A stretch of 54,083 nucleotides of DNA from contig DKOI01000112.1 of the NCBI GenBank assembly GCA_002469885.1, positions 1 through 54,083 on the forward strand, given 5' to 3'. Under the pieces are notes generated by a model. That model did not search any database, was not told the DNA's origin, and worked only from the letters and a program-made list of their open reading frames with translations. This stretch comes from Legionellales bacterium UBA7366 (lineage in GTDB: Bacteria > Pseudomonadota > Gammaproteobacteria > UBA7366). The position numbers and the translations under genes are program-made. Below, in pieces: positions 15,231-53,004 of the stretch (position 1 is the stretch's first letter; each line of letters starts with the position of its first letter).

Positions 15231-15267
15231 AAAAAAAAGGACGGAAAATGGGGTTTACCGTCCTTTT
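15231..15267 (-). terminator. rho-independent terminator (best on minus strand; may also stop the DUF58 gene)
   Basis: AAAAGGACGG (15235..15244) pairs with CCGTCCTTTT (15258..15267) across a 13-nt loop. Read on the minus strand, the hairpin is followed by a run of 8 T in total. On the plus strand only TTTT follows the GC core. Confidence 0.7.
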
Positions 15268-15374: not shown

Positions 15375-15610
15375 AATAAAATTATATCAAAGCTGAATTA
15401 TTTAGAAATAATGCTATTGAAAAGTATTCGAAGTAGCGACTGGGCATAAACAAGCAAGATGAATATAAGTTGTTTTTTTTCAACAAGTTAGACCAGGTTT
15501 TTACCTGCGCATGAGTTTAAGGTTAAACTAGAAACGAACAATGGCTTACATGAATGTGCGAGATATCTCACGAATCGTCCGGGCGATCATCCTGTTATGT
15601 CGGCAGCCCC

Positions 15611-16063: not shown

Positions 16064-16090
16064 GAAAAAGTCTCCGCAGTGAAAAGATTA

Positions 16091-16564: not shown

Positions 16565-16572
16565 GGAAACTA

Positions 16573-17754: not shown

Positions 17755-18596
17755 ACCTCTTCGCGAATCAGAGACATTGCACCTTCCAATGCATCGCCTT
17801 CAACTGGCACTAAATGATTAATAAACCCAATGCTAAGATAAGGCATCAAGTGTTGTGCAATACTTCCATGTAAGCACAGTGGAAATTGAAATCGGCTCTT
17901 ACATAAGGTCTCATAAATTGTTTCAATTTCTTTGGCAGCAATATGGAACAAATGTTTGGCGACGGGATCTTCTGAATATTCAAATACGACCTTAGCAAAT
18001 TCTGCATAGCTTGTTGCATTCGCACGCCGTGCGAATCCGACAATATCATCACCAATTCTTTCAAACAACGCTTCTAATAACGGCGTCGATCGACAACGCT
18101 GGTCTCGCCATTTCAACATGCATCGAATGGCTTCATAGCCTAACCAGGCGCCACTGCCAACATCGTGCAGCGCAAATCCCCAACCACTGACCGTAACTTC
18201 TTCTGCATCTTGCATTGCATATCCAATAATGCCCGTGCCACTAATAATAATGGCACCGTCTTCACCCGCATGCGCGCCTTTACAAGCAATATGCGCATCC
18301 GATTTCAAAACGATTGAGTCGAAAGGGTGGAGGTAATCTAAAAACGCTTGGACTGCCGTCACATCTTCTGTGCCCGCCAACCCCATGCCTGCATGCACAT
18401 TGAGATCTTCACGAGTAAAATCGATCTGGGCTAAATAACACGCATGACGAATGGAGTCCCACGCTTGTTCAAACGACATGGAGATATTCGCAGGCCCAGC
18501 TTGGGCTTCAGCCAACAACGTGCCATCGGCATCTTCCACGCGAATTGCGCACTTGCTGCCGCCACCGTCAATGCCTATGTAAATATCCTTATTCAT
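17745..18596 (-). CDS. N-acetylglucosamine kinase (BadF/BadG/BcrA/BcrD ATPase family)
   Basis: 283 aa with the N-terminal phosphate-1 motif IGIDGGGSKC. ASKHA-fold length, and sits in an operon with nagA. Confidence 0.75.
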   Translation of the reverse strand: MNKDIYIGIDGGGSKCAIRVEDADGTLLAEAQAGPANISMSFEQAWDSIRHACYLAQIDFTREDLNVHAGMGLAGTEDVTAVQAFLDYLHPFDSIVLKSDAHIACKGAHAGEDGAIIISGTGIIGYAMQDAEEVTVSGWGFALHDVGSGAWLGYEAIRCMLKWRDQRCRSTPLLEALFERIGDDIVGFARRANATSYAEFAKVVFEYSEDPVAKHLFHIAAKEIETIYETLCKSRFQFPLCLHGSIAQHLMPYLSIGFINHLVPVEGDALEGAMSLIREEVCV

Positions 18597-25690: not shown

Positions 25691-26374
25691 TCACGCTTGA
25701 TCTGGTGCGCCAATATTTTCATCTCTCATCTGTGCTGTGAACGTTGTGGCCCGGCTATCGGGGTAAAGTGTGATTTGAACTCTTCGATTTTCATACAATC
25801 CTTTTGCACTACGCATGCTAGAAATAGGTTCACGTGAGCCCAAACCCGCATAGCGCATTACTCGTGTGCCATCAACGGAATTGATCCCTTGAGTCTCTAA
25901 AAAATGAGTGATTTTTGCGGCTTGAGCACCGGAGAGCGTGTCTTCAAACTTTTTGGTGCCAATATTAGACGTGTTTACAGTAACTAATATATTTTTATGG
26001 GGATAGTAGCTGAGATAGATTGCTAAATCATTTAATACTGTGTCTGCGTGTTTTGCTAAATCTGTGGTCGCAGGATCAAAAAGTGCATCGCTGGGGATGA
26101 TGATTGTAATGCTATCACCCACTTGAAAGGATTCCCCGCCAGAGGCTTTTACCTTCTTAAGCGAGGGTAAGCTGGCATAGTAGCCAATACCGCCACCAAG
26201 CAACCCTGAGAGCAAGGTGATTGCCTTATCGGCCCCTAGAACGTGTGCAATACTCGCGCCAGTTGCCGCACCTGCGCTCGTATACGTTGCTTGTCGGTTC
26301 TGTTGGGCTGTGCTGCTGCATGCTGTTAAAAAAAGGATGAGAGGAAGCAGTATTATTGTTTTTATTTTATTCAT
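25691..26374 (-). CDS. OmpA-family lipoprotein with glycine-zipper (YiaD-like)
   Basis: Lipobox LFLTAC, a Gly-zipper (GLLGGGIGYY), and a C-terminal OmpA-like peptidoglycan-binding domain (GLGSREPI...NRRVQITL). ATG 26374 is preferred over 26380 on RBS spacing. Confidence 0.75.
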   Translation of the reverse strand: MNKIKTIILLPLILFLTACSSTAQQNRQATYTSAGAATGASIAHVLGADKAITLLSGLLGGGIGYYASLPSLKKVKASGGESFQVGDSITIIIPSDALFDPATTDLAKHADTVLNDLAIYLSYYPHKNILVTVNTSNIGTKKFEDTLSGAQAAKITHFLETQGINSVDGTRVMRYAGLGSREPISSMRSAKGLYENRRVQITLYPDSRATTFTAQMRDENIGAPDQA

Positions 26375-26515
26375 TACCATTGCCTTTGTTTTGATTTTTA
26401 TAAGTACAATTGTATGTTAAAAAGGTAAAGAAAACAAAGGAAAAAAATCGCATTCTCTGATACAATTTAGCCAGTGATAAGCTAGACAAAAAATGACGTT
26501 TTTTCAATAAGTTAG

Positions 26516-29016: not shown

Positions 29017-29045
29017 TTGACATATTTGCCTTGAAAATCTATAAT
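29017..29045 (+). promoter_or_regulatory. consensus sigma70 promoter for the DUF4143 ATPase gene
   Basis: TTGACA (29017..29022), a 17-nt spacer, then TATAAT (29040..29045): a perfect match to consensus. A 10-bp inverted repeat TGAAAATCTA/TAGATTTTCA (29032..29041 / 29053..29062) brackets the -10. Confidence 0.55.
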
Positions 29046-29072
29046 AGCACTTTAGATTTTCACGGTGTTTAT

Positions 29073-30203
29073 ATGTTTCGTCCCGAGTACATAGAAAAAA
29101 TCAAGGCGTTACATGAGAGCCACCCCATCGTTGCCTTACTAGGCCCTAGGCAGTGCGGAAAAACAACGCTTGCTCACATGCTAGCGGATTCCGACACCAT
29201 ACCCACCCATTTTTTTGACCTTGAAGACCCAGAAGTCCTTGTCAAACTAGACAACCCAAAGCTTGCGCTTGAAAGCCTCTCGGGGCTCATTGTTATTGAC
29301 GAAATACAACGCTCGCCTGAGTTATTTCCCTATTTACGTGTCTTAGTCGACCAAAACCCGAGCCTTAAGCTGCTCATACTAGGAAGCGCCTCTCGAGAAC
29401 TCATCAAACAGTCCTCGGAAAGCTTAGCTGGCAGAGTCGCCTACATTGAAGTAACACCTTTTAGCTTTACGGAGACAAAGGAGATGCAAAATCTGTGGAT
29501 ACGAGGTGGATTCCCCCGCTGTTACTTAGCGCCCTCTTTTGATGCAAGCATTGCCTGGCGGAAACATTACATTACAACCTTCTTAGAGCAGGATATCCCA
29601 AACCTTGGCATTAACGTTCCACCACAAATGCTGCGTCGATTCTGGATGATGCTCGCACATTTCCATGGCAATGTTTTTAATGCCGCCGACCTAGGGAAAT
29701 CGCTGGGTGTTACTGGGCCCACAATACGCCGCTACCTTGATATCTTAACAGGCACGTTCATGGTGAGACAGCTGCAACCTTGGTTCGTTAATATGAAAAA
29801 ACGCCAAGTCAAATCACCAAAAATTTACTTCAAAGACAGTGGTATTTTTCATACACTGATGGGGATTTCAGACCAAGATACGCTCTTATCTCACCCTAGG
29901 CTAGGCGCATCCTGGGAAGGCTTTGCCCTTGAAGAAATTATACGATATATCGATGCCACACCAGAGGAGTGTTACTTTTGGGCAACGCATGCGGGGGCAG
30001 AACTGGATTTATTAATTATCAAAGACGGAAAAAAATTGGGTTTTGAATTTAAATATTCCGATGCGCCTAAACTCACAGCCTCAATGAAAATTGCCTTTGA
30101 AGAACTTGAGCTTGACTCTCTCACCGTTATCTACCCAGGTAAAAGCACATTCCCATTGCACGAGGGTATCACGGTTTCAGGCCTAGCAAATTATCTCACT
30201 TAA
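29073..30203 (+). CDS. AAA ATPase with DUF4143 C-terminal domain (COG1373-like)
   Basis: Walker A GPRQCGKTT and Walker B LIVIDEIQ, with the family-typical length. The track start 29031 lies inside the promoter, so ATG 29073 is preferred. Confidence 0.75.
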   Translation: MFRPEYIEKIKALHESHPIVALLGPRQCGKTTLAHMLADSDTIPTHFFDLEDPEVLVKLDNPKLALESLSGLIVIDEIQRSPELFPYLRVLVDQNPSLKLLILGSASRELIKQSSESLAGRVAYIEVTPFSFTETKEMQNLWIRGGFPRCYLAPSFDASIAWRKHYITTFLEQDIPNLGINVPPQMLRRFWMMLAHFHGNVFNAADLGKSLGVTGPTIRRYLDILTGTFMVRQLQPWFVNMKKRQVKSPKIYFKDSGIFHTLMGISDQDTLLSHPRLGASWEGFALEEIIRYIDATPEECYFWATHAGAELDLLIIKDGKKLGFEFKYSDAPKLTASMKIAFEELELDSLTVIYPGKSTFPLHEGITVSGLANYLT

Positions 30204-30312: not shown

Positions 30313-30564
30313 ATGAAAGATGCATTTACTCAAGCTGTTAAATACATATATGAACATATTGATGAACTAATCTCCTTAAAGGATATTGCTCTTCATACAG
30401 GCATATCTATTAAATCACTAAAACATTTATTTCAAAAGGCTGTCGAACAAACACCAGGTGCGTTCATACGAAAATTGAAAATGGAGCTTACTTTTACCCT
30501 TTTTGACAAATTTCCAGAAAGTTCAGTCTCTGCAAAAATTACGATAAATGTACTCCTAGCATAA
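30313..30564 (+). pseudogene. AraC/XylS-family HTH fragment (first HTH only; decayed regulator)
   Basis: 83 aa. ISLKDIALHTGISIKSLKHLFQKAVEQTPGAFIRKLKMEL corresponds to HTH-1 plus the linker helix of an AraC DNA-binding domain. There is no N-terminal domain and HTH-2 is missing. A different frame at 30543..30587 reads DKCTPSIKYLRHN, resembling the usual ...TPxxYR C-terminus. Confidence 0.55.
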
Positions 30565-30725: not shown

Positions 30726-32288
30726 ATGAATAATCAAAGTCAACAAGACGAGCTGGCGCGTCTCACACAATATGCGAACGCTACCGGCACAAGTGTTGTT
30801 ACCAGCACAGCAAACCTTGATATCAAAGATTCGATTCTTGCTGATATGCACCATTGGTGTAAGAAACAAGGCGATATCGCCGTGTTGAACAGTGGCGTTA
30901 TCCTATCATCAAACCCAGCGTCTCGTGATATTCAAAACATTAAAACTGCATTACTCAACAAAGGGCTACGGCCTGGGCGTGTCTATGCCGCCACGCAAGA
31001 TCTAATCAGTTTATTGCTCGCTAACAGCGTGGGCGAGAATGATGACATTGGCGAACAAGAAATCAGTGATCGCCAACAATACCTGCGAAATCTTGTGAGT
31101 GAAGCGATTATCCGAAACGCCAGTGATATTCACATACAAGTTAGACGTAATAAAACCACTATTCGAATGCGGAGTCATGGCACCTTATCCACATACGCAG
31201 AATGGACACAAAAACTCGGCCGTGAAATTGCTGCCGTTGCATTCAATAAAGAAACCGATCACGCAACTTCACACTTCAATCCCCTCGTGCCACAAGATGC
31301 CTCGATGCCGCTTGAAATTAATGGTCGCGATGTGCGTTTGCGTCTTGCAAGCGTGCCTGCGCACGGCGGGTTTGATATGGTTTTTCGTATCTTAACAACA
31401 GGTCATGAGGATTTACTGAAACTTTCAGAGCTTGGCTACACAGAAAAACAAGTGAGCTTGATTGCCGATGCTGTCAAATATCCACACGGTGCTATCATTG
31501 TGGCAGGCCCAACTGGGTCAGGTAAAACCACCACGCTAGCAAGTTGCATGGAAATGATTGACCCTATCCGAAAATTATACTCCATTGAAGATCCTGTTGA
31601 GAAAGTTGTGGAAAAAGCGACGCAAGTGCCTGTGAATACAGACAAAACCGATAGAAGTTTTGCCAGCATGGGGCGAGCAGCTTTGCGAATGGATCCTGAT
31701 GTGATTATTCTCGGGGAAATGCGTGATGAAGACACGGCAAGTGTCATGGTACGCGCGTCAATTACAGGTCACTTGGTGTTAACGACTGTTCATACGAACA
31801 GTGCAACCGGCATTATTACCCGACTAATGGATTTAGGTGTCTCATCAAACTTACTCAGTGATGCCAGCGTATTGCGCTTACTCATGTTTCAACGACTGAT
31901 TGCAAAAATTTGTCCGCACTGTTCGATTCCTTTATCCGAATCAACAAAACATATTCCTCACTTAAGCAGTTGGCAAACTGTCTTTCCTGTGATGAGTGCA
32001 ATGCGTGCAAAAGGCCCCGGGTGTGACAAATGTGACAACACAGGCGTACAAGGTCGAACCGTCATTGCCGAAGTGGTTTGGATTGATGATAAAGGTCGCG
32101 AATTTATTCAGCGAGGGGATACTCTAGGTTGGGACCAATATTTAAAAGAACAAGGCTTTGAGTCTTATCAAATGCATGCAATAACACTAGCCAAATCAGG
32201 CGCTTGCGATCCACTTGACGTTGAAGCAGTCGTGGGCAAACTCGCAATAACCATTGATGGTGGCAAATTTGATTACAGGTCGGTATAA
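30726..32288 (+). CDS. type IV pilus/T2SS assembly ATPase (GspE/PilB family; R64 PilQ-like role)
   Basis: 520 aa. Walker A GPTGSGKTT, Asp-box/Walker B DPDVIILGEMRD, His box TGHLVLTTVHTNSA, and tetracysteine CPHC...CDKC. Confidence 0.9.
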   Translation: MNNQSQQDELARLTQYANATGTSVVTSTANLDIKDSILADMHHWCKKQGDIAVLNSGVILSSNPASRDIQNIKTALLNKGLRPGRVYAATQDLISLLLANSVGENDDIGEQEISDRQQYLRNLVSEAIIRNASDIHIQVRRNKTTIRMRSHGTLSTYAEWTQKLGREIAAVAFNKETDHATSHFNPLVPQDASMPLEINGRDVRLRLASVPAHGGFDMVFRILTTGHEDLLKLSELGYTEKQVSLIADAVKYPHGAIIVAGPTGSGKTTTLASCMEMIDPIRKLYSIEDPVEKVVEKATQVPVNTDKTDRSFASMGRAALRMDPDVIILGEMRDEDTASVMVRASITGHLVLTTVHTNSATGIITRLMDLGVSSNLLSDASVLRLLMFQRLIAKICPHCSIPLSESTKHIPHLSSWQTVFPVMSAMRAKGPGCDKCDNTGVQGRTVIAEVVWIDDKGREFIQRGDTLGWDQYLKEQGFESYQMHAITLAKSGACDPLDVEAVVGKLAITIDGGKFDYRSV

Positions 32289-32320
32289 TAATTCAATCAT
32301 AATAAAAAAAATAAAAAACG

Positions 32321-33373
32321 ATGACAATAAACGATATTCTCGACAAGGCAACAACGCTGTTTAAGAAACTGAGTTTCGGCAATAAACGCCAACTCATTTT
32401 CCTAGAAGATCTATCTGTACTCGTCAGTGACGGCGTTCCCGTCAATCGTGCTATCGATATGCTCACCGAGATATACACAGGCATTAGCCAAGAAGTGGCA
32501 ATCAACTTATCCCAAGCCATTTCTGAAGGAAAACCATTGGCTGAAGCGATGCGCCCTTGGTTTAACGTAAGCTCTGTTGAATTGGTCAGAGCAGGCGAAG
32601 AAGGTGGCACCTTAGATCAAACAATGCATTCAGCCGCCGATGCATTAAAAGAAAAATCCAGTTCCATTTCAGCCGTAGTCGGTGCGATAGTCTACCCCCT
32701 TGTCGTACTGATTGCCGGTTGCCTTGTTATTATTTACATTAACAATTCCATTTTCATCGATTTTAAAGCCATAAAGCCTGTCACCGAATGGCCAACGGTT
32801 GGACGAGCACTAATATCTCTCGCTAACTTTATTCAATATTGGTCATGGCTAGCAATTATCGTTGTCATTGGAAGTATTATCGGATTACGTCACACACTCA
32901 TTAATTATGTCGGTGAGTTACGTCCAACACTGGACAACCTGCCAATCTTCAATGTCTATCGTGATTTAACCGCAGCGCGATTAATGGAAACATTAGGGCT
33001 ATTGGTTTCTAACGGTGTCGTATTCAAAACAGCAATTAAAGTATTGCAATACCACGCCAACCCATACCTCGTCTCTCATTTAATTGGCATGGAGCGTTTA
33101 TTGGGAACCGGTAAAGACAACATTGCAGAAGTGTTGAATACTGGACTTGTCAAACAACAAGATGTGATGCGACTTCGCGTCATTGCTGAAGTGAAAGGCT
33201 TTGAGCACGCACTCATTCGTCTTGGAAAATATGCGGCTATTCAAGGAAATAATACCATCCGAATAGCTGCAAAAATCACTGCAGGCTTTTTGCTTGCTGT
33301 TGGTGGCGGACTCATTATCTTTATGATCTTCGCTATTTATCTCGTGGGTATGTCGTTAGGTACAATCAGTTAA
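32321..33373 (+). CDS. type IV pilus inner-membrane platform protein (PilC/GspF family; R64 PilR-like role)
   Basis: 350 aa with two cytoplasmic helical repeats separated by TM helices. Position is directly after the ATPase. Confidence 0.82.
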   Translation: MTINDILDKATTLFKKLSFGNKRQLIFLEDLSVLVSDGVPVNRAIDMLTEIYTGISQEVAINLSQAISEGKPLAEAMRPWFNVSSVELVRAGEEGGTLDQTMHSAADALKEKSSSISAVVGAIVYPLVVLIAGCLVIIYINNSIFIDFKAIKPVTEWPTVGRALISLANFIQYWSWLAIIVVIGSIIGLRHTLINYVGELRPTLDNLPIFNVYRDLTAARLMETLGLLVSNGVVFKTAIKVLQYHANPYLVSHLIGMERLLGTGKDNIAEVLNTGLVKQQDVMRLRVIAEVKGFEHALIRLGKYAAIQGNNTIRIAAKITAGFLLAVGGGLIIFMIFAIYLVGMSLGTIS

Positions 33374-33399
33374 TAATTAAAATAAGAGGAAAATAAAAA

Positions 33400-33861
33400 A
33401 TGTTAAATAGCCTACAAATTAGAAAAAAAAGAGAAGAAGGGTTCGGTTTGCTCGAATTAATGTTATCAATGGTCGTTGTGGCATTGTTGTTAATCATGGC
33501 AACACGTTACTACCAAAGTGCACGAACATCAGCGCGTGTTAACTCTGCCATTAACATGACACAAGCGGCATTAACCGCTGCTGATAACATCAGTAATGCA
33601 GAGGGTGGTTATACATCCGCTATAACAAGTGATGCGATTAAACCGTTCTTGCCAAACAACAGTTTGCAAACGCCTTGGGGCACGCAATTGACCGTAACGC
33701 CAGCAGGTTCTGGGAGCTCAAGCACAGTAACCTTTGGTATCCCAGCAACCGCAAGCGATTGTACTGCGCTCGTTTCGGCACTGCAAAACACAGCAAACGG
33801 TGCAACATGTGAATCTGACACAGCATCTATCGTCTTTAACTATAACCATAACGCTGTTTAA
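33400..33861 (+). CDS. major prepilin (class III signal peptide)
   Basis: MLNSLQIRKKREEG|FGLLELMLSMVVVALLL has Gly-1, Phe+1 and Glu+5. The mature protein is 139 aa with a C-terminal Cys pair (SDC...17 residues...TC). AGAGGA RBS upstream, and an attenuator hairpin downstream. Confidence 0.85.
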   Translation: MLNSLQIRKKREEGFGLLELMLSMVVVALLLIMATRYYQSARTSARVNSAINMTQAALTAADNISNAEGGYTSAITSDAIKPFLPNNSLQTPWGTQLTVTPAGSGSSSTVTFGIPATASDCTALVSALQNTANGATCESDTASIVFNYNHNAV

Positions 33862-33877
33862 GCTTATGGATAAACAA

Positions 33878-33912
33878 CTGCCCTTTAACGGACTTAAAGG
33901 GCAGCTTTGTTT
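33878..33912 (+). terminator. attenuator/terminator hairpin after the major pilin gene
   Basis: CTGCCCTTTAA (33878..33888) pairs with TTAAAGGGCAG (33894..33904) across a 5-nt loop, followed by CTTTGTTT. Confidence 0.65.
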
Positions 33913-33924
33913 GAGGCAATTAAG

Positions 33925-34695
33925 ATGAAAAACAACAACCAAGGTTTGTCATTACTCGAAATATTACTCGCACTCTCAATTATCAGCGCGATAACTATTT
34001 TGGGCATAAAGCAATATTTTGTATTTAAACAACATAAAAATATTGTCCAAGTCACAAAACAAGTGAATGACTTACTCACAGCCAGTGGAAAGTTTTATGT
34101 CGCAAACTGCATAAGCGACCCATCATCTGATGCGCAATACGCTTCAGCAAAACAAACGTTGGACACCGCGTTACAGGGTGTTAATATCCAAACGGATTTA
34201 CAAGCCTACTTACCCATAGCGGTTGATAGGCTTGTAAACCCTTTCGGTCAATTTGATAATGAACAATCTTATAAAGTCGCGTTAATACAAGCGCCTTTTA
34301 CACCCAAAGATATGACGAGTGGAAACTGGGAACAAAATGATAAAACCTATCACGATAATAATTACAGTACCCAGGGGTTTGATTCGAATGTGTTGTGGCA
34401 AACACAAGTTAAGGCATGCATTACTGAACTGGTTTCAAAAGACTCGGGAGAATCTATAAACCCTGACGCTATCCGGGCTTACTTCAAAGCTGATGGTTAT
34501 GATCTTAACGATGGAAGTTGTACAAACGGGGTGGTATTAACCTGGACACGATTGCCACGCAACGTTGCATTGGCAGGGTCGAATAACGCAAGCGCAAGAG
34601 GCGCTTCAGCGCAATACAATAAAATGGGGCAGTGGTCTCCCTGGATGAAAGAACAATTCGGTCAAGATAGATTTAACTACTTATGTCAAACCTAG
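33925..34695 (+). CDS. minor pilin-like protein (256 aa)
   Basis: MKNNNQG|LSLLEILLALSIISAI has Gly-1 and Glu+5. ATG 33925 with GAGG 8 nt upstream is preferred to the track start 33907. The globular part has four Cys. Confidence 0.75.
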   Translation: MKNNNQGLSLLEILLALSIISAITILGIKQYFVFKQHKNIVQVTKQVNDLLTASGKFYVANCISDPSSDAQYASAKQTLDTALQGVNIQTDLQAYLPIAVDRLVNPFGQFDNEQSYKVALIQAPFTPKDMTSGNWEQNDKTYHDNNYSTQGFDSNVLWQTQVKACITELVSKDSGESINPDAIRAYFKADGYDLNDGSCTNGVVLTWTRLPRNVALAGSNNASARGASAQYNKMGQWSPWMKEQFGQDRFNYLCQT

Positions 34696-34714
34696 ATAAA
34701 CGAGGCAACTAAAA

Positions 34715-35629
34715 ATGCGCGTGATAAAAAAACAACAAGGCTTTAGCCTGCTCGAAGTGATGTTAGTCTTAGTCATTCTAGTTGCATTAGGCACGCTGGC
34801 TATTTCGACTATGCGCAGTAAAATGATCAACGTTCGTTTAGAACGTACGGCTGAGCAAATGCAACAAGTTACACAATCTGCTGTCTCCTACTTTATAGAC
34901 AATCACATGTGGCCTAGCGAATATCTTTCATTTACGACTGACGGCATCAGCACACTGGCGCAAGAAGCTTATCTTCCCCAGTCAATGCTAGATGACAGCA
35001 ACGAATTTACCAGCTCTTGGGGCACACCTTATGAAACCAAGCTCTCTGACAGTGAAGGTCGACAATTTTTAGTCCGCGTGGATGTTGGCAATGAGAGTTA
35101 TGCAAGCGTGTTAAGAGGCATGCTGCCAATGGCCTACCTTGATGGGACGAATGTTATCACTAGCGTTAATGTGCCTAGCTATAATTATAATAACGCACAG
35201 AGCGTCAGTCATATGGGAATTTATACTCTAGGCGCCTGCGTCCCAGAGCCCGCTTGCCCAACGGGAATGAAGGCTCAAATAACGACAACACCTGCTGGCC
35301 TGGCTGGAATAACATCCGTTAACTCAAGTGGCTCAACTACGCCCATCCAGAGTTTCATGGCATATGCCTATGGAAAAAGCAGCAAAGATAAATCGCCCGT
35401 ATCAAAACCTCTCCTTTGCCCAAACCAGGAGTTAACAACGGGCTCTTGCTCAGGTGGAGAAACAGGAAACTATTGGCGCGCATGTTTATCCGGCACAGCT
35501 TCTGGGGGCGAAATTGTTAATTTTACAGAACAAAAGGGCACTGTGAAAAATCACGCTATTCAAATTTTAGCCATGACAAATTGTGTTCCGGAAAAAAACA
35601 GTTCATACACCCAATTTTCTAAAAATTAA
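34715..35629 (+). CDS. large minor pilin-like protein (304 aa; adhesin candidate)
   Basis: MRVIKKQQG|FSLLEVMLVLVILVAL has Gly-1, Phe+1 and Glu+5. The C-terminal 130 aa has six Cys. Confidence 0.75.
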   Translation: MRVIKKQQGFSLLEVMLVLVILVALGTLAISTMRSKMINVRLERTAEQMQQVTQSAVSYFIDNHMWPSEYLSFTTDGISTLAQEAYLPQSMLDDSNEFTSSWGTPYETKLSDSEGRQFLVRVDVGNESYASVLRGMLPMAYLDGTNVITSVNVPSYNYNNAQSVSHMGIYTLGACVPEPACPTGMKAQITTTPAGLAGITSVNSSGSTTPIQSFMAYAYGKSSKDKSPVSKPLLCPNQELTTGSCSGGETGNYWRACLSGTASGGEIVNFTEQKGTVKNHAIQILAMTNCVPEKNSSYTQFSKN

Positions 35630-35755
35630 TGGCAATAGCCTAGAGTATCAAGGAGTTAGAAGAAAATGTTAGCGAAATCGTTGTTTACAATGTGCTCAGA
35701 AACCAGTTATAATCATCAATCTGCTGCAAACAATAACAATAAACGCGGAGACAGA

Positions 35756-36277
35756 ATGAAAGCACTGCTCACAGGCCTACTGGGCTTTATTACACTATAC
35801 CCCTTCCTAGCCCAAGCAGGATGGCAAGCTCAAGATACTCAACCCAATCCTGACACACAGTTTGTTTCTTCAGAAGCGAATGGGGCATGGAAAGAGGCCT
35901 CTCCAGAGTTGGGTAGCGAGTTTGAACCCTTTTTTGAACCTGCCAACTTGAATGCCAAAAAAAATAATGAACAACAGACTGCTAACATTGAAGACAGCGC
36001 CGCAATTGCCTCAAAACCAGAGCCTGCAAAATTAACAATGTTAATGCTAGAGCCTGGCACACTCAAAGAAAATATCGAACGCATGAATCAAATGTTACCC
36101 AACCCTTGGCGTATTAAATGGACAAGTGAAAATGATTACCTTGTCACAGGCAATGCAAACGTGAGCGGAGACAATTTCTACGACGCCATCGGAAACCTTT
36201 TAAAATATTATCCAGTTCGTGCTGAGTTTTATACCAAAAATCATGTTCTATCTATTGTCTCTGGGAGCGCCTCATGA
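35756..36277 (+). CDS. periplasmic TcpQ/PilL-like pilus biogenesis protein
   Basis: Signal peptide MKALLTGLLGFITLYPFLAQA. The C-terminal block LEPGTLKENIERMNQ...WRIKWTSENDYLVTGNANVSGDNFYDAIGNLLKYYPVRAEFYTKNHVLSIV resembles the TcpQ C-terminal domain as I recall it. An alternative start at 35666 has an AAGGAG RBS. Confidence 0.5.
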   Translation: MKALLTGLLGFITLYPFLAQAGWQAQDTQPNPDTQFVSSEANGAWKEASPELGSEFEPFFEPANLNAKKNNEQQTANIEDSAAIASKPEPAKLTMLMLEPGTLKENIERMNQMLPNPWRIKWTSENDYLVTGNANVSGDNFYDAIGNLLKYYPVRAEFYTKNHVLSIVSGSAS

Positions 36278-37818
36278 AAACAATTCAAAAAACCATTAGA
36301 GTTGCCGTAGTCCTAACAAGCGCATTCACCTTAGCAGCTTGTTCTACCCCTAAACTCTTTTCTCAATCACAAGAAAATGTGAATAAGGTAAAAACGCAAA
36401 TTAAAGACGCTCGACAAGAGGGCGACACGCTCACAAAACCTAAAAGCTCAGTGATTGTAAAAGACGAGCTCTATGTTGATAGCGTGCCGATCAATATTAA
36501 GAAGCAACCTACCTGGTTAAAAGGACGCATCAGTTTACACGGCGACAAACTTCCTTTCTCTTTCTACTCTCGCAATATTGTTAAATCAGCGGGTGTGCTT
36601 ACCAAGTATCAACACCGTTTAGATCCGTCGCTTGAAATCAGCATGAACTATACCGGCGACATTCAAGGCGCCCTCGACTTGCTTGCTGCCAAAACCGGAT
36701 ATTCATACAGCATCAACGGTGACTCCGTTTACTGGAGAGCCTTTGAAACAAAAACATTTAATATTGCCTTCATGCCGGGCTCATCAAATTACATGGTAGG
36801 TAAAGACAAGGTTACTAAAAAGAAAGAAGATGACAGCAACACAAATGAGGTGATCAAAAAAGGAAATGATGATACTGCTAATGATCAATATTCAAACTTG
36901 CAAGCAACGCTTTCTGTTTGGAAAGATATGAACAACACGATTCAATCCATGCTTTCAAAAGAGGGAAGAGTCGTTGTATCAGAATCAACTTCTGCAATTA
37001 CCGTCACCGATCATCCGAGCAACTTAAAAACAATCGGGTTATATATTGATTCAACCAATGCTGATCTCTCAAAGCAAGTCATGATTAAAGTGCAAGTATT
37101 ACAAATCAACCTGCAAGAAAACTTTGTCAATGGCATTAACTGGGATGCGGCTAAAACAATGTTAGGTGGAACTGATTTTACCTTTTCCGGAAACTTTGCA
37201 GCGCCTGTTGCTATTGCGCCTATTGCCGGTATCTCTACCGCAAGCTTTGGAGCAGCTTCTGGTGCCAGCCAAGCATTGATTACCGCCTTGTCACAACAAG
37301 GTCGCATCTCTACAACAACTGAGCCTACTGTTGTTACCACGAACAATCAGGTTGCAACGCTAGGTATCACAACACAGACAGGTTATTTGGCGCAGGTTTC
37401 ATCGACCATCTCTGGTGATACTGGCACGCTCACAACAGATGTTCTGCCTGGACAAGCCATCACAGGTTTAACGTTATTCATACTACCTAAAATTATGGAT
37501 AATAAAGTTTATCTGCAAGTAAGTTCAAGCTTATCCACATTACAAAAAATACAAGACCTTTATTCACAAGGCACGGCAGATAATCCAAACGAAAGCGCGA
37601 CTAAAATTCAAGCGCCGATTATTAATGATAATTCATTCAACCAGCGCAGTGTTATCACATCAGGAACAACGCTGATTTTAGCTGGCTTTAAACAAATACA
37701 TAACGAAGCGAATAACTCTGCTTTTGCACAAATTGATGCATTGGGCGGTAAAGGTGCGGCTCAACAAAACATACAGACCATCATATTAATTACACCTTAC
37801 ATTTTAAATAATAGCTAA
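36274..37818 (+). CDS. lipoprotein secretin (R64 PilN / BfpB / TcpC-type)
   Basis: 514 aa with lipobox LTSAFTLAAC. The C-terminal secretin domain includes SGTTLILAGFKQ...GGKGAAQQNIQTIILITPYIL. ATGA overlap with the previous gene. Confidence 0.8.
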   Translation: MKTIQKTIRVAVVLTSAFTLAACSTPKLFSQSQENVNKVKTQIKDARQEGDTLTKPKSSVIVKDELYVDSVPINIKKQPTWLKGRISLHGDKLPFSFYSRNIVKSAGVLTKYQHRLDPSLEISMNYTGDIQGALDLLAAKTGYSYSINGDSVYWRAFETKTFNIAFMPGSSNYMVGKDKVTKKKEDDSNTNEVIKKGNDDTANDQYSNLQATLSVWKDMNNTIQSMLSKEGRVVVSESTSAITVTDHPSNLKTIGLYIDSTNADLSKQVMIKVQVLQINLQENFVNGINWDAAKTMLGGTDFTFSGNFAAPVAIAPIAGISTASFGAASGASQALITALSQQGRISTTTEPTVVTTNNQVATLGITTQTGYLAQVSSTISGDTGTLTTDVLPGQAITGLTLFILPKIMDNKVYLQVSSSLSTLQKIQDLYSQGTADNPNESATKIQAPIINDNSFNQRSVITSGTTLILAGFKQIHNEANNSAFAQIDALGGKGAAQQNIQTIILITPYILNNS

Positions 37819-37832
37819 AAAGAAGAAGATAA

Positions 37833-39077
37833 ATGCCTAGCATTATACGAGAAAAAGACGGTGCAACATTTACAACCCCTGACTATAGGGAGTTGACGAG
37901 CACCAAAAAAGCATCACTGCTCAAAAGAGAGATACTCATGCTCTCAACACAGCACGGTGATTTTTCTCATATTCGCAAAAAAAATAAGTCGCAATATGAA
38001 GTCGCTTTTTCACATGAATCCGGATTTTTACTCGGTGAAAGTGTTTGGCAACATTTCAATAGACCTTATAACATGGTCTATTGTGAGTTATTACCTAATG
38101 CGGCAGAAGTAATCCTTGTTGTTGTCACGAACGGTAGTATTTTTATAGATACAAAGATACCTCAGCTAAGCGTCCCTGAGGAATTGGCTGTGTTTTTAGG
38201 GGAAGATCATGAGTTTGAAATTTATATTCACGGTGATGTGCCTATAAGTAAAGAGCCTGCTGAAGGGAAATTTTCTTTTTCTAGGCAGACAACAAAAAGC
38301 TTTACCGTGCTCGAAGAATCTTTTTTTGACAATCTAAAACAAGACCCTGAGCTTGAATTGCTCCCAGCTGCGCAAGCCTTAAAAAAACAACGTATTGGAA
38401 CGCTCCCTGTTAAAAATATTGTAGTGGTATCGATCATTGCTGTAATTTTTTGGACGGGATGGGCTAAGCTCACGAACACAAACAGTGTGTTACCTAAAAT
38501 AATCATCAGCGTTGTCGACCCATACACTTTATTTTTAAATACGCTATCAACGCCCGCGCCTGATAAAAGCATACGTCAACTTGTAGATTATATAGAGCGT
38601 GTTTCAGAAGCCCCAGGTTGGAGCATGAAAACGATTTCTTTCAACAAGAGAAATGGTTTTAAATCCTACTTACTCTCCTCCGGAAACAACATTTCTAATC
38701 TGAAAAAATGGGCTTATCAACAGCACATATCAGTTGATATTGATAATAAAGGCGTCTCTGCAAACATCCCAAACACGGTGAAAAACAGAGCGAAGCCAAA
38801 TAAAATCTTTAAGTTGCAAAATGTATTAGGCAACATAGTCGATAGAACCAATAGCATCTTACCGGGCAATGCAATACTACTCCAACCCATTGTCTCTTAC
38901 AGTCAATACAAAGAAATTTCATTTAGTATCACTATCGAAGATGTTACGCCAACATTATTATTACTATTGGCCGAACAATTCACGCAAATGCCTGTTGCAT
39001 TTGATGGCGCTGAACTCACAGTCAATGATAGTGGATTTATATCAGGGACTCTAACCTTAACGGCATTGGGAAATTAA
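37833..39077 (+). CDS. bitopic pilus assembly protein (R64 PilO-like by size and topology)
   Basis: 414 aa with a single central TM (VVVSIIAVIFWTGWAKL). Sits immediately after the lipoprotein secretin, as in R64-type clusters. Homology not verified. Confidence 0.45.
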   Translation: MPSIIREKDGATFTTPDYRELTSTKKASLLKREILMLSTQHGDFSHIRKKNKSQYEVAFSHESGFLLGESVWQHFNRPYNMVYCELLPNAAEVILVVVTNGSIFIDTKIPQLSVPEELAVFLGEDHEFEIYIHGDVPISKEPAEGKFSFSRQTTKSFTVLEESFFDNLKQDPELELLPAAQALKKQRIGTLPVKNIVVVSIIAVIFWTGWAKLTNTNSVLPKIIISVVDPYTLFLNTLSTPAPDKSIRQLVDYIERVSEAPGWSMKTISFNKRNGFKSYLLSSGNNISNLKKWAYQQHISVDIDNKGVSANIPNTVKNRAKPNKIFKLQNVLGNIVDRTNSILPGNAILLQPIVSYSQYKEISFSITIEDVTPTLLLLLAEQFTQMPVAFDGAELTVNDSGFISGTLTLTALGN

Positions 39078-39080
39078 ATT

Positions 39081-39794
39081 ATGAGCACAATAACAGAAAA
39101 ATTAAAAGCGCTAGATAAAGGTCAAAAATCAAAAGTCGGTATTATTTTTATCGCTCTCGTCATCATTATCTATATGTTATCAGACATGATGGGGGAGAAC
39201 AGTGTTTCACAAAACACCATTCGAAAAGCAGAAGCAATCTCGGATACTCATCAGCCCGTCACTAAAAGGCAGAACCCAATCCAACCACAGGTAACCCAAC
39301 TACAACAATCGTTAGTTTCGCCTTCTGAGGGAAAAGAAGTTGTCATGCCTGAAAAACCCAAAAGAAGTCAATCGAATTACTTACAATCAATGGATCAACT
39401 CAAACAACTTCAATTAACACAAAAAATTGAAGCCTTGAAACAATCCATCGCACAAGCAAGGTTGAATCAACTACAAACGAACAAAGACATTACAACCTTG
39501 ATTTCACCTCCAGAGCCAGAGAAAATCGTTGAAAAAGCTACGGCTGTATCGAATGATAATACTGATGCCACTGCCTCTGAACCTGAGGTTATAGTTGAAG
39601 AGTTTAAATTGCTTTATGTCGCAAACGAAGAAAATAGCTGGCAAGCCGTTCTTGGATTAAACGGTAAGTTCTACAATATCAGCATCGGCACCACACTACC
39701 CGATGGGCGAACAGTCGTTAGTATCGGTGGAACAAGCGTTGATTTGACTGATGGTGAAACCAAAACAACTTTATCGATCACGCCTGTTATTTAA
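39081..39794 (+). CDS. PilP-like pilus assembly protein
   Basis: 237 aa. N-terminal TM, a coiled coil (YLQSMDQLKQLQLTQKIEALKQSIAQARL), and a C-terminal beta domain (WQAVLGLNGKFYNISIGTTLPDGRTVVSIGGTSVDL) resembling the R64/ICE PilP family pattern. Confidence 0.5.
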   Translation: MSTITEKLKALDKGQKSKVGIIFIALVIIIYMLSDMMGENSVSQNTIRKAEAISDTHQPVTKRQNPIQPQVTQLQQSLVSPSEGKEVVMPEKPKRSQSNYLQSMDQLKQLQLTQKIEALKQSIAQARLNQLQTNKDITTLISPPEPEKIVEKATAVSNDNTDATASEPEVIVEEFKLLYVANEENSWQAVLGLNGKFYNISIGTTLPDGRTVVSIGGTSVDLTDGETKTTLSITPVI

Positions 39795-42622: not shown

Positions 42623-43449
42623 AAATTCACAGTCCCTGTAAAAACGGTGTGTGCAGGACCGGTCATCCAAACAACATCATCACTATTCCCTGTCCATGTA
42701 ATAGTCAAATCGCCCCCAGGCATATTGACTAACACCTCATCCTGACAGTGTCCTTGTAAAATGCTGGCAACAGCCGCGGCGCATGCTGATGTTCCACACG
42801 CCAGTGTTTTTCCGGCACCACGCTCGTATGTAACGAGCTCAATCCTATTGTGTTCTATAATATGCACAAAGCCAACATTCACACCTTCTGGGAAATCGGG
42901 ATGCTCACCTATGACTTGACCCCAGCTATCGAGCTCACGTTTATCAAACGCATCAATGATAACAATCGCATGTGGATTGCCCATATTAACAACAGTAACT
43001 TCAAAATCACCCAGCGCTGTTTTTATCGTGTGCGGGTTAGCTTCTTTGGATGCGCTAAAGGGAATGTCTTTGGGTAAAAATAGTGGGCAGCCCATACTGA
43101 CTTTGACAAGTCCTTCCTCTCCCACAGTCGCCCTGTATTGCCCTGAAACGGTTTCAAGTACAACTTCGCCCCCAGAGATGAGTTCATGATCTTTTGCGAA
43201 CCTAGCGACACAGCGGGCGCCGTTGCCGCATTGCTGCACCTCACTACCGTCTGCATTAAAAATATGGAAGAAAATATTTGAACTGCCTTCGGCTTGCTTT
43301 GTTAACAGCAACTGGTCAAAGCCAATTCCGAAATTTCGATTAGCGAGCTTTTTTATTTCATCAACCGTGGGTTTCCACGTCTGTGAGATGCCATCAACAA
43401 CCATAAAGTCGTTGCCAAGGCCTTGCATTTTATCAAAATGAATAATCAT
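42619..43449 (-). CDS. dapF: diaminopimelate epimerase
   Basis: 276 aa with FDKMQGLGNDFMVVD at the N-terminus and catalytic Cys motifs (QCGNGARC, ACGTSACA). ATGA overlap with the trkA start. Confidence 0.94.
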   Translation of the reverse strand: MIIHFDKMQGLGNDFMVVDGISQTWKPTVDEIKKLANRNFGIGFDQLLLTKQAEGSSNIFFHIFNADGSEVQQCGNGARCVARFAKDHELISGGEVVLETVSGQYRATVGEEGLVKVSMGCPLFLPKDIPFSASKEANPHTIKTALGDFEVTVVNMGNPHAIVIIDAFDKRELDSWGQVIGEHPDFPEGVNVGFVHIIEHNRIELVTYERGAGKTLACGTSACAAAVASILQGHCQDEVLVNMPGGDLTITWTGNSDDVVWMTGPAHTVFTGTVNL

Positions 43450-43474
43450 TCAACGAGTTTAGCCAAATCAACTA

Positions 43475-43588
43475 TCACTGGCCATCAATTTTTTGATCAT
43501 CTTGCGGTGGTAAGAACAAAGGACCTGATTGTCCACAGCTCGTTAGTACAAAACTTGCCAATATAAGTGTAGCAGCGACGTATTTCAT
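43475..43588 (-). CDS. lptM: small lipoprotein LptM (YifL)
   Basis: Not in the ORF track (37 aa): MKYVAATLILASFVLTSCGQSGPLFLPPQDDQKIDGQ. It has a lipobox followed by the CGQxGPL(Y/F)LP signature, and holds the conserved position just upstream of dapF. Confidence 0.8.
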   Translation of the reverse strand: MKYVAATLILASFVLTSCGQSGPLFLPPQDDQKIDGQ

Positions 43589-44217
43589 AACTTATTCCCA
43601 AAAATGAGTGGAATCGCAGTATAAACGTAAACATCTAAAAACAAAAACTGGATAAGTCTGTGGACAAGCCCCCTCAATACTCGTGAACAAGATGTTGAAA
43701 ACTAGGGGGGAAAATAGAAAAAATAGTTACACACTTCTTATGCACAGAGTTTATCGTGAGTTATCAGCAAAGTTTTAGTTAACGTAACATACTGTAATAA
43801 ATAAACTTATAAGACTTACCCACAGAAAATAGGCTCAGTAATAATAACAGTAATATTAAATATTTAAATAATATTATTATTACTGACAATAAAAAGTGGG
43901 TACCTAAAAGTGAAAACTGGGCAATTTTTAATTGTGGATAACTCTCTGTATAAGTGCACTGGCTTACTGTGGTATTGCATTGCATAAAGTGAGGTTTATT
44001 GGGGAAATTATGTTATCCACGATTTAAACACAGCTCAACTCAAAGGGTTCACAGCAAATTATTATTACCATAAAGTGTTGTTTTTAATGTTAGAATTATA
44101 CTTATCCACAGAGTTGTTGTTCAGTAATAATAATAACAAGATTTAATATATAATCTTATATATTATTAGGGACCCATAAATTTTTAGTTAAAAGCGAATA
44201 AAGGTAAAATATATATA
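43589..44217. other. candidate chromosomal replication origin (oriC)
   Basis: DnaA-box 9-mers: TTATCCACA at 44102..44110 (+) and 43933..43941 (-), TTATGCACA at 43738 (+), TTACCCACA at 43816 (+), TTATCCACG at 44013 (+), and TTGTCCACA at 43659 (-) and 43529 (+, inside lptM). AT-rich repeats CAGTAATAATAA occur at 43836 (+), 44122 (+) and 43874..43885 (inverted). A 12-bp palindrome TTAAATATTTAA is also present. Neighbours are gyrB and rpmH-rnpA-yidC-mnmE. Confidence 0.55.
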
Positions 44218-45288
44218 ATGTCATCCAATGCTAAGCCTCGTCTTCTTACAGGCGACACACCCACAGGTAAACTTCACTTAGGTCATTATGTGGGCTCACT
44301 TGAAAATAGAATTGCATTACAAGACGAATATGAGTGTTATTTCATCCTTGCAAACATACATGCATACACAACGCGCTTTAATCGACCACAAGAAATACAT
44401 GATAGTGTGTTAGATATTGCCATCGATTATTTAGGTGCAGGAATTGACCCTAATAAAAGCACGATATTTATTCAATCAGAAGTTCCAGCCATATCAGAAC
44501 TCACTTTCTTGTTTAGTATGTTGTTACCTTATCCACGTGTTATGCGTAACCCGACTATCAAAGATGAAATTCGTGATAAAGATTTAGGGGATAACTATCC
44601 ATTTGGATTTTTACTGTACTCAGTTGGACAGGTGGCGGACATTTTAGCGTTTCGTCCAGAAATTGTTCCCGTTGGTGAAGATCAATTACCTCATATTGAA
44701 ATGACGCGTGAAGTCGCAAGACGTTTTAACCAACTCTACTGCGCTGTAGATTCACATGCAGCTGATGAAGAGCAGATAGACCTAGGGGGTATCTTACCCG
44801 TCGTAAAGGCTAAGCTTGGCCGTACAAAGCGTTTAATAGGCACGGGGGCGCCTACTGAGGAAGGTCAATTGTTGAAAATGAGCAAATCATTGAACAATGC
44901 CATTATGTTGAGTGATGATAATGATACGATCAAAAAGAAAGTGATGGGAATGTATACAGATCCTAACCGTCTTAAAGCCACGGACCCAGGTTCCGTTGAA
45001 AATAACCCTTTATGGATTTTTCATGAAACGTTTAACCCTGACACAGCGTGGGTAGAAGAAACACAAGAGCGTTACCGTCAGGGAACTGTCGGTGATGTTG
45101 AGTGTAAGCGTGCATTAATTGATGTGTTGGTTTCATTGATCGAGCCTATTCGAGAAAGACGTTTAGTGTATGAAAATGACAAGGCGCAAGTATTATCAAT
45201 TTTGAAGGAAGGTTCTCAGCGAGCCAATGCTGAGGCGCAGAAAACGTTAGCTTTAGTTAAAGAGGCTATGAAGCTCTCATTTTTTTAA
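44218..45288 (+). CDS. trpS: tryptophan--tRNA ligase
   Basis: 356 aa class I aaRS with HIGH-type motif TGKLHLGHY and a KMSKS motif. Confidence 0.9.
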   Translation: MSSNAKPRLLTGDTPTGKLHLGHYVGSLENRIALQDEYECYFILANIHAYTTRFNRPQEIHDSVLDIAIDYLGAGIDPNKSTIFIQSEVPAISELTFLFSMLLPYPRVMRNPTIKDEIRDKDLGDNYPFGFLLYSVGQVADILAFRPEIVPVGEDQLPHIEMTREVARRFNQLYCAVDSHAADEEQIDLGGILPVVKAKLGRTKRLIGTGAPTEEGQLLKMSKSLNNAIMLSDDNDTIKKKVMGMYTDPNRLKATDPGSVENNPLWIFHETFNPDTAWVEETQERYRQGTVGDVECKRALIDVLVSLIEPIRERRLVYENDKAQVLSILKEGSQRANAEAQKTLALVKEAMKLSFF

Positions 45289-52904: not shown

Positions 52905-53004
52905 TTCGCTAAAGATAGTAACGCGTATTACATTCGGTGTAAACAAAGCGCTAGCCTGTTGATTATTATGTATATATACTTTCAAAAAAATAAAGGGAGT
53001 GTCT

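Follow-up and report, generated by a model that had tools for sequence, protein, structure and literature searches.

A probable type IVb pilus machine encoded beside gyrB in a clade related to the Coxiellaceae and Legionellales

We analysed a 54,083-nucleotide stretch of DNA from Legionellales bacterium UBA7366 (contig DKOI01000112.1 of assembly GCA_002469885.1; hereafter the window), in which nine genes downstream of gyrB encode the parts of a type IV filament machine. It is probable, in our judgement, that these genes specify a complete, minimal type IVb pilus (T4bP) machine, vertically inherited as a core locus beside gyrB and the replication origin (oriC) in a clade related to the Coxiellaceae and Legionellales. 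The initial annotation of the window, made from its sequence, had described the cluster as an orphan hybrid of type IVa (T4a) and type IVb (T4b) systems wedged between gyrB and trkH. The nine open reading frames (ORFs) all lie on the + strand within 30726-39794, with intergenic gaps of -4 to 126 bp, and the translations bear out what had been read from them: nine co-directional, tightly packed genes with a Walker A and a tetra-Cys motif, a LAAC lipobox on the secretin and three class III signal peptides. The whole 54-kb window holds three ORFs with such signals and one each of T2SSE ATPase, platform and secretin.

The cluster is widely conserved. One genome per GTDB species was scanned with a marker protein, which gave 75 loci, nearly all titled Coxiellaceae, Legionellales or uncultured Gammaproteobacteria. 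All seven core families were present in 49 of these 75 species-level genomes and followed the same order in 49/49: ATPase, platform, (large pilin 1), large pilin 2, TcpQ-like protein, secretin and two bitopic proteins, here called p414 and p237 after their lengths in the window. The incomplete loci were mostly cut by contig ends, and frameshifts were seen in a few loci only (L045, L075 and L079). Of the 49 complete loci, 39 have gyrB immediately upstream (median gap 178 bp), 36 have dapF downstream on the opposite strand, and 32 have both; the order in Aquicella siphonis is recF-gyrB-cluster-dapF, and marine relatives (L087 and L088) have the same cluster arrangement. The source organism is itself represented by contigs from marine metagenomes (SOLA, TARA and JGI samples). 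Between the window and the clade genomes, GyrB is ~68% identical and p414 35-40%. Because protein identity is just 35-40% despite the shared order and position, the arrangement is old and has been maintained. We conclude that the cluster is a vertically inherited core chromosomal locus, neither an orphan nor a recent insert, and that the gyrB-trkH interval of the window is one instance of a conserved gyrB-cluster-dapF synteny and not the site of a lone insertion. In the deep-branching loci L072, L078 and L079, a module resembling TcpQ-secretin-p414-p237 stands alone at that site.

The locus is close to a probable replication origin, as had been proposed. A low-GC spacer of 770 bp between dapF and trpS (window 43449-44218) contains seven DnaA-box matches (TTATCCACA, at most 1 mismatch) within 43529-44110; this cluster of boxes, at 43.5-44.1 kb, coincides exactly with the cumulative GC-skew minimum, and rpmH-rnpA-yidD-yidC-mnmE come after the spacer. 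The gyrB of the window has no adjoining dnaA, dnaN or recF, and the gyrB of Aquicella (L001) has recF beside it. Pfam searches of the flanking ORFs returned housekeeping genes and, across the 54-kb window, no integrase, relaxase, type IV secretion system (T4SS) or recombinase. Mobility genes were absent from the window and from within +-10 kb in the 75 related loci, and Trb proteins had no match in the window or in loci L001-L083. GC content does not differ between cluster and flanks and is flat across the boundaries, and no tRNA or Rfam elements, looked for as signs of an island, were found in the window. The cluster is thus chromosomal and conjugation-free, as first described; with no relaxase, T4SS or integrase nearby and a conserved chromosomal position, it does not belong to the conjugative module of a plasmid or of an integrative and conjugative element (ICE).

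The outer-membrane components are of T4b type. The secretin (Pfam Secretin, E 5.8e-11) reaches 228 bits against TIGR02520 (PilN-T4b) versus 90 against MshL, 33 against GspD and 29 against PilQ, and its sole relative in the PDB is BfpB (9u5s, E 1.4e-30). Of 68 secretin orthologues, 65 have a lipobox-like Cys and the other three MGC, and automated annotation calls the homologues 'R64 PilN family' or 'bfpB'. The TcpQ-like protein has a Sec signal (...AQA/GW, cleaved at the slash) and is not a lipoprotein; its gene most likely starts at M31 (35756), which is nearly invariant in the family alignment and gives 173 aa. Its own match to PF10671 (24.9 bits) is under the gathering score of 27, and all 35 of 35 orthologues match that family (best E 3.6e-07). 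The family profile also matches, at the level of sequence, 9u5s_R (E 0.008), a chain of the BfpB-BfpG complex that is labelled 'Lipoprotein' and that we take to be BfpG, and aligns with BfpG by hhalign (E 2.6e-05, 75%). In the bundle-forming pilus (BFP), 17 copies of BfpG hoop the N3 ring of the lipoprotein secretin (17:17) and are needed for pilus biogenesis (PMC12531336). TcpQ had been counted among the hallmarks of R64 and PAPI-1 pili; it belongs instead to the toxin-coregulated pilus (TCP), BFP, Cof and Lng systems, and R64 and PAPI-1 use PilL.

The two bitopic proteins were assigned by predicted structure. p414 had no Pfam, NCBIfam (E<=1) or PDB sequence match, and a profile search against the PDB was also negative. 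Its AlphaFold2 (AF2) model, with a mean confidence (pLDDT) of 81, predicts a cytoplasmic alpha/beta domain (residues 1-190), a transmembrane helix (193-214) and a periplasmic ferredoxin-like domain (230-414) with an alpha-beta-beta repeat. The top Foldseek matches were the actin-like N-domain of PilO2Bp (4byz, prob 0.97, E 8e-3) and the periplasmic core of the PilO of T4a pili (T4aP; 2rjz, prob 1.0), with weaker matches to PilM and EpsL. PilO2Bp of Burkholderia pseudomallei has a topology of 1-194 / transmembrane 195-214 / 215-432, nearly identical to that of p414, and BfpC has a fold in common with it without sequence identity (PMC3984277); p414 may be likened to BfpC because of this published shared fold. 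The 380-aa protein in the equivalent position of an Aeromonas plasmid cluster aligns with p414 by hhalign (97%, E 9e-11). The p414 family comprises 498 representatives at 50% clustering (237 with E<1e-30), nearly all ~410 aa long, and the best 150 of the 498 are all full-length members; all members, among them AQUSIP_22110 of Aquicella siphonis, carry the annotation 'hypothetical'.

For p237, the model predicts an N-terminal transmembrane helix, a long helix (96-140) and a C-terminal six-stranded beta domain (176-232; pLDDT ~75-84). The top 12 Foldseek matches of this domain are all PilP or the homology region (HR) of GspC/PulC (prob >=0.97, TM-score up to 0.73), with root-mean-square deviations of 2.2-2.9 A in the best domain-level alignments. 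The C-terminal domain aligns with R64-type PilP (hhalign E 3e-05, 73%), and a PilP query matches p237 orthologues directly by phmmer. A weak TcpS match (19.5 bits) was also found, and the comparisons with BfpU and with the 226-aa protein of the Aeromonas plasmid were not significant. Structure prediction, which the initial annotation had suggested for both proteins, thus returned PilO2/PilO and PilP/GspC-HR folds, and the PilO-like and PilP-like labels hold for predicted fold and architecture, not for Pfam membership.

At the inner membrane, the ATPase carries GPTGSGKTT, DPDVIILGEMRD, TGHLVLTTVHTNSA and CPHC...CDKC in its translation and matches T2SSE (PF00437, E 1.5e-88). The platform protein matches T2SSF (PF00482, E 5.6e-20) and is nearer BfpE (117 bits) than any PilC or GspF model; the platform of the Aeromonas plasmid scores 102 bits and R64-type PilR 47. 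Among the profile searches proposed at the outset, T2SSE, T2SSF, N_methyl and Secretin all matched, and TIGR02520 gave its 228 bits under the model's cut-off.

The three prepilins have the cleavage sites G/FGLLE, G/LSLLE and G/FSLLE, and N_methyl was found on all three, the 262-aa one scoring 18.8 bits, below the gathering score of 21.2. The small pilin had been described accurately (14-aa leader, Phe+1, 139-aa mature protein), and it has two C-terminal Cys. Taken alone, the window protein matches N_methyl only (E 1.5e-05). Its family, which consists of the window protein, those of the marine relatives L087/L088 and those of several deep-branching loci, aligns with bundlin (BfpA) over window residues 8-127 (hhalign 97.5%, E 5.5e-12), and a BfpA query finds the window protein by phmmer (E 7.6e-06). 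PF08805 (PilS) matches 5 of the 12 members and PF05307 (Bundlin) 2 of the 12. In the PDB, the matches to BfpA, TcpA and PilS run into the globular domain, whereas T4a pilins cover the N-terminal helix only. The small pilin is thus a compact bundlin homologue of T4b type. Its length, its homology to bundlin and the strong hairpin that follows its gene also make it the probable major pilin here. This hairpin (33878-33904) has a dG of -22.8 kcal/mol (z = -4.73, 0/200 shuffles as stable), and with its U-rich tail it follows the pattern usually seen behind genes for major pilins; it probably sets the ratio of pilin to machinery, towards a high pilin stoichiometry. L087 and L088, in which the following gene directly adjoins the pilin gene, lack this hairpin.

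The universally conserved pilins of the cluster are the two large pilin-like proteins, both with a genuine pilin N-terminus. Large pilin 1 has a 7-aa leader, a class III motif and four conserved Cys; in its family (mature length ~240-300 aa), Glu5 is present in 44/45 members and position +1 is Val, Ile, Met, Ala or Leu. Its N-terminal helix alone matches known pilins, the rest having no Pfam or PDB match. Large pilin 2, which is present in every complete locus, has a 9-aa leader (N_methyl E 5.5e-06); in its family, of 300-390 aa when mature, Phe+1 is found in 49/64 and Glu5 in 57/64. The family profile matches PilE over residues 1-93 (6e-10) and TcpA over 1-175 (1.3e-05), and its Cys-rich C-terminal half had no match in the same searches. 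The pilin genes are amplified in the deep-branching locus L067 (876-7464), where the platform and TcpQ-like genes are separated by a tandem of four small pilins, one pilin of 215 aa and three of ~330 aa.

We compared this set of parts with known systems. For T4bP, the TXSScan models list pilB, pilC, pilA, pilQ and pilD as mandatory and ask for at least four of them; pilD may be a loner, and T4a pilin profiles may replace those of T4b (PMC6668835). Of these five mandatory components, the cluster has four (ATPase, platform, T4b pilin and T4b secretin), and the peptidase, allowed as a loner, was not found. Among individual systems, BFP resembles the cluster in its lipoprotein secretin (BfpB) with a BfpG/TcpQ-type partner, in the ~400-aa bitopic protein with an actin-like cytoplasmic domain right after the secretin (BfpC, 402 aa, versus 414 aa), in the small protein that comes next, followed by ATPase and platform, the platform here being closest to BfpE, and in its bundlin-type major pilin. 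The BFP genes on pMAR2 of enteropathogenic Escherichia coli run bfpA-G-B-C-U-D-E-F-P-H-I-J-K-L, and the modules G-B-C-U and D-E are kept in the window, joined the other way round. In contrast to BFP, the cluster has no BfpF, BfpP, BfpH or BfpL by phmmer, p414 and p237 have no detectable sequence similarity to BfpC and BfpU, two large pilin-like proteins (256 and 304 aa) replace three small minor pilins, and the locus is chromosomal and vertically inherited, not carried on a virulence plasmid. The pilin differs as well, with 139 aa and Phe+1 here; bundlin has ~180 aa when mature and Leu+1.

With R64, PAPI-1 and the B. pseudomallei Tfp7 pilus, the cluster shares a PilN-type secretin, a PilO2-type bitopic protein (by predicted fold and topology), a PilP-type C-terminal domain, ATPase, platform and a small pilin plus large pilin(s). 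Tfp7 (pilV2M2S2R2Q2P2O2N2 + TcpQ2) is itself a chromosomal, reordered R64 derivative in which TcpQ replaces PilL (PMC3984277). The differences from R64 are that PilL, PilM, the PilT transglycosylase, the PilU peptidase, PilV and a shufflon are missing here, that there is no conjugation link, that p414 is recognised by neither PF06864 nor PilO2 and the secretin stays below the TIGR02520 cut-off, and that p237 is bitopic with 237 aa, R64-type PilP having 150 aa. R64-type and IncI reference proteins gave no phmmer match to PilM, PilL, PilT, PilU or PilV in the window or the loci, and R64-type and BFP queries gave none to a lytic transglycosylase in the window. The window has no second (retraction) ATPase, the BfpF query matching just the single extension ATPase. 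The initial annotation had listed peptidase, PilM, transglycosylase, retraction ATPase, recombinase, relaxase, T4SS and integrase as missing from the 54 kb, and our searches agree on each. The cluster appears to lie outside both the R64 and the BFP variants.

The nearest relative in the plasmid collection is a cluster on Aeromonas hydrophila plasmid NZ_CP083945 (L084, 42.4-52.2 kb), with 29% identity in the secretin (98% of query), 31% in the ATPase and 24% in the platform. Its order is secretin, 380 aa, 226 aa, ATPase, platform, then two small pilins and one 306-aa pilin. It differs in being plasmid-borne beside a Trb T4SS, in having the modules 'unpermuted' and in carrying the TcpQ-like domain as the C-terminus of a 428-aa OmpA-family protein; its genes are annotated as 'hypothetical proteins' and it is itself uncharacterised. 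TCP also pairs TcpQ with a lipoprotein secretin (TcpC), does without a retraction ATPase and initiates assembly with a large minor pilin (TcpB), and its order tcpQ-C-R-D-S-T-E parallels the two modules here. The measured likeness to TCP consists of Pfam TcpQ in all orthologues, of the weak TcpS match on p237 and of TcpA matches for the small-pilin and large-pilin-2 families. TCP differs in that it has its own peptidase (TcpJ) and secreted substrate (TcpF), lies on a pathogenicity island and has two proteins, TcpR and TcpD, in place of the one 414-aa protein. Altogether, the Aeromonas plasmid cluster and B. pseudomallei Tfp7 come closest in their list of parts. What had been seen as a permutation is two modules joined differently, because BFP (G-B-C-U then D-E) and the Aeromonas plasmid show the other order.

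Several observations weigh against a complete T4b machine. The 228 bits of the secretin are below the trusted (equivalog) cut-off of TIGR02520, 287.65. R64 PilU and BfpP queries found no A24 peptidase in the 54-kb window or within +-10 kb of the 75 loci. Judged by sequence, the ATPase is not diagnostic of T4b: GspE (277 bits) and PilB (248 bits), its best NCBIfam models, with all scores below the equivalog cut-offs, outscore BfpD (147 bits; pairwise, the Aeromonas plasmid ATPase gives 214 and IncI PilQ 187), and similarity scores do not separate T4b from type II secretion systems (T2SS) or T4a. p414 appears to have no sequence link to PF06864 (PAP_PilO, E<=1), R64-type PilO2 (hhalign probability 0.4%) or BfpC (no profile similarity by hhalign), and its Foldseek E-values are ~1e-2 for a two-domain model searched whole. 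The T4b accessory set first proposed is supported for the secretin and TcpQ and, at the level of fold and architecture, for PilO and PilP. For p237, a word-indexed search returned 3 proteins, and the model made from these 3 sequences has an overall pLDDT of 58. Finally, 47 of the 49 complete loci have no small pilin gene in or near the cluster; there, the shaft subunit may be encoded elsewhere, or a large pilin may form the fibre. Genes of the small-pilin family lie ~1.5-3 kb downstream on the - strand in L073 (14909-15352), L076 (12144-12587) and L078 (14294-14755), which hints that the shaft pilin was relocated, not lost, in parts of the clade.

We propose that the machine would work as follows. 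A housekeeping PilD encoded elsewhere in the genome would cleave and N-methylate the three prepilins; the peptidase must come from elsewhere because none is present at the locus, and Legionella PilD serves both T2SS and type IV pili (T4P), with pilD and T4P genes found across the Legionellales (PMC6617341). The platform and a hexameric ATPase would extrude pilins at the inner membrane, held in register by p414, whose cytoplasmic actin-like domain is expected to dock both and whose periplasmic PilO-like domain would face p237. The PilP/GspC-HR domain of p237 would in turn reach the N0 ring of the lipoprotein secretin, which the TcpQ/BfpG-like protein would hoop and stabilise. By analogy with TcpB, CofB and PilV, the two large pilin-like proteins probably prime assembly and end at the tip, where their Cys-rich C-terminal modules would probably bind the target. 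The shaft in this genome would be built of the 139-aa bundlin-type pilin. Like TCP and R64, the locus has no retraction ATPase, and any retraction would, as in TCP, occur spontaneously or be set off by a minor pilin. The most likely role would be aggregation, or attachment to surfaces or to host (protist) cells; we would rank T2SS-like export second and DNA uptake third. A tentative extension, which we hold to be on the unlikely side, is that this is an ancient T4bP lineage of the Legionellales/Coxiellales and a candidate chromosomal stock of the T4b pili of plasmids, ICEs and virulence islands, that in most members the filament would have no ordinary small major pilin and be made of two pilins of ~260 and 330 aa with Cys-rich domains, and that it would serve intracellular bacteria as an organelle of attachment to host (protist) cells or of effector export, overlooked next to Dot/Icm, T2SS and T4aP.

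Some of the same evidence could fit a secretion device, in which a short pseudopilus would act as a piston and push periplasmic substrate(s) through the secretin. In most loci of the clade only the two large pilin-like proteins are retained, without a small shaft pilin; GspE is the best-scoring model for the ATPase; p237, like GspC, is bitopic, unlike the lipoprotein PilP of T4aP, and its domain matches PilP and the GspC/PulC HR equally; p414 has a single-chain architecture like that of GspL, and there is no retraction ATPase. TCP and CFA/III, moreover, also secrete proteins (TcpF and CofJ). We nevertheless think such a device improbable. The secretin gives 32.6 bits against GspD (cut-off 351) but 228 against PilN-T4b; no GspH/I/J/K-type set, GspM or candidate substrate gene is conserved in the locus, and the matches to T2SS pseudopilin models run through the N-terminal helix only, far below cut-offs. 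In this genome, an attenuator-like hairpin also comes after the gene for a bundlin-type pilin, and Aquicella already possesses a full Lsp T2SS (PMC6617341). Membership of the mannose-sensitive haemagglutinin (MSHA) class finds no support either, with 90 bits against MshL (cut-off 250) and no other Msh model matched in the window.

DNA uptake is mediated by several type IV filament classes (PMC6668835), and a conserved core locus without conjugation genes could encode a competence pilus. We regard this as very unlikely, since in the loci inspected the cluster has no linked competence gene (ComEA, ComEC, DprA or any other) and a retraction ATPase is missing. Known competence pili are, to our knowledge, of the T4a or Com types, and we know of no T4b system tied to transformation.

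A true T4a/T4b hybrid, which would join a T4b outer-membrane module to a T4a pilin and ATPase module, is a still fainter prospect. It draws on the Phe+1 and 139-aa mature length of the pilin, both T4a-like features, on the tetra-Cys motif of the ATPase and its PilB and GspE scores above BfpD, and on L072, L078 and L079, where the modules are separable. However, the homology of the small pilin to bundlin, PilS and TcpA extends through its globular domain (E 5.5e-12 by hhalign and 7.6e-06 by phmmer for bundlin), and its T4a matches are confined to the generic N-terminal helix; the platform is closer to BfpE than to PilC/GspF models, the 14-aa leader is longer than usual T4a leaders, and ATPase similarity scores alone do not resolve the family. 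Nor does the cluster belong to T4aP, with 28.8 bits against the PilQ model (cut-off 284), no second ATPase and a single fused p414 in place of PilM/N/O. The three features that had seemed not to fit a textbook system (gene order, missing peptidase, pilin type) fall within variation already known for T4bP: reordered operons with TcpQ (PMC3984277), and a loner peptidase and T4a pilin profiles (PMC6668835).

Least probable of all is a reading in which the cluster is what decay has left of a thin-pilus operon (R64/PAPI-1 type) from a plasmid or ICE, drifting after the loss of its conjugation partner: the closest plasmid relative does adjoin a Trb T4SS, PilN- and PilP-type components are common with R64, and peptidase, transglycosylase and shufflon are missing, but the genes are intact, in one order and at one chromosomal position in 49 species at 35-40% identity, with no mobility genes, flat GC and frameshifts in few loci only. 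A recent genomic island was likewise considered and rejected, given the flat GC, the absence of tRNA/Rfam elements and mobility genes, and the conserved synteny.

The T4bP machine proposed here is a variant, old and so far undescribed, of a machine that is already known, and it brings no new mechanism; every part maps onto a known component class, and nothing is overturned. The open-access literature yielded no description of a T4b pilus in Legionellales, Coxiellaceae or Aquicella, which is not proof of absence and agrees with the initial view of the locus as uncharacterised. The interest of the locus lies in where it stands in the phylogeny, in its fixed site on the chromosome and in an unusual set of pilins. 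Most of what is known of T4b pili comes from enteric pathogens (TCP, BFP, CFA/III, Longus), conjugative plasmids and ICEs, and in published phylogenies T4bP branches at the base of the clade of bacterial type IV filaments. A T4b machine fixed near gyrB/oriC in at least 49 species-level genomes would widen the natural history of the class and offer a non-mobile reference lineage for rooting T4bP. It would also add a surface organelle to a protist-inhabiting clade whose host interaction has been explained via Dot/Icm, T2SS and T4aP. Several unannotated families could now be named: that of p414, with its 498 representatives, and those of the bitopic PilP-like protein and of the two large pilins, the latter two kinds having C-terminal or linker regions without a Pfam model.

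Table 1. Features of the pilus cluster and its upstream ORF (window coordinates).
Feature	Coordinates	Strand	Description
Extension ATPase, PilB/GspE/BfpD class	30726..32288	+	520 aa, Walker A and tetra-Cys motif
Inner-membrane platform protein, BfpE/PilC/GspF class	32321..33373	+	350 aa, PF00482 in two stretches
Small prepilin, probable major pilin	33400..33861	+	153 aa, compact bundlin/PilS-type (T4b)
Terminator-like hairpin with U-rich tail, candidate attenuator	33878..33904	+	11-bp stem, 3' of small pilin gene
Large pilin-like protein 1	33925..34695	+	256 aa from ATG 33925; ORF opens at TTG 33907
Large pilin-like protein 2, candidate tip/initiator pilin	34715..35629	+	304 aa, Cys-rich C-terminal module
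TcpQ/BfpG-like periplasmic secretin partner	35756..36277	+	173 aa from M31; ORF opens at 35666
Lipoprotein secretin, T4b (PilN/BfpB) type	36274..37818	+	514 aa, lipobox LAAC
Bitopic protein (p414), PilO2/BfpC/GspL-like architecture	37833..39077	+	414 aa, predicted fold
Bitopic PilP/GspC-like connector (p237)	39081..39794	+	237 aa, predicted fold and hhalign
AraC-type helix-turn-helix ORF, possible truncated regulator	30313..30564	+	83 aa, PF00165 E 1.8e-06; membership uncertain

The AraC-type ORF, 161 bp upstream of the ATPase gene, was absent from the other loci inspected and recurs only in L004, a copy of the window's contig; classical T4b pili are under AraC-type control (ToxT, PerA). A promoter scan was uninformative (28 sites versus 24 expected). 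Between gyrB and the cluster, the window carries, besides this AraC fragment, a gene for an AAA_14/DUF4143 ATPase (29031-30203, + strand), and trkH-trkA lie between the cluster and dapF. Homologues of the DUF4143 ATPase stand on the far side of the cluster in L030, L031, L063, L064 and L086, as if mobile around the locus.

Elsewhere in the window, an ORF at 52999-54021 (+ strand) has a eukaryotic-type protein kinase domain (PF00069, E 2.6e-09); its similarity to the eukaryotic-like kinase effectors of Legionellales fits a host-associated lifestyle. A 709-aa ORF without a Pfam match (22991-25120, - strand) is followed by two small lipoprotein-like ORFs, one of which has an OmpA domain (25691-26380). 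At 6658-11162 (- strand), a BcsS-like outer-membrane protein adjoins a MacB-type ABC permease, an HlyD adaptor and a TolC-like outer-membrane efflux protein, which form a tripartite efflux or export cluster. In the TARA relative L088, a lasso-peptide-like set (13568-18006) lies between the pilus cluster and trkH, with Asn synthase-like, PqqD, transglutaminase-like and NTP_transf_5 members.

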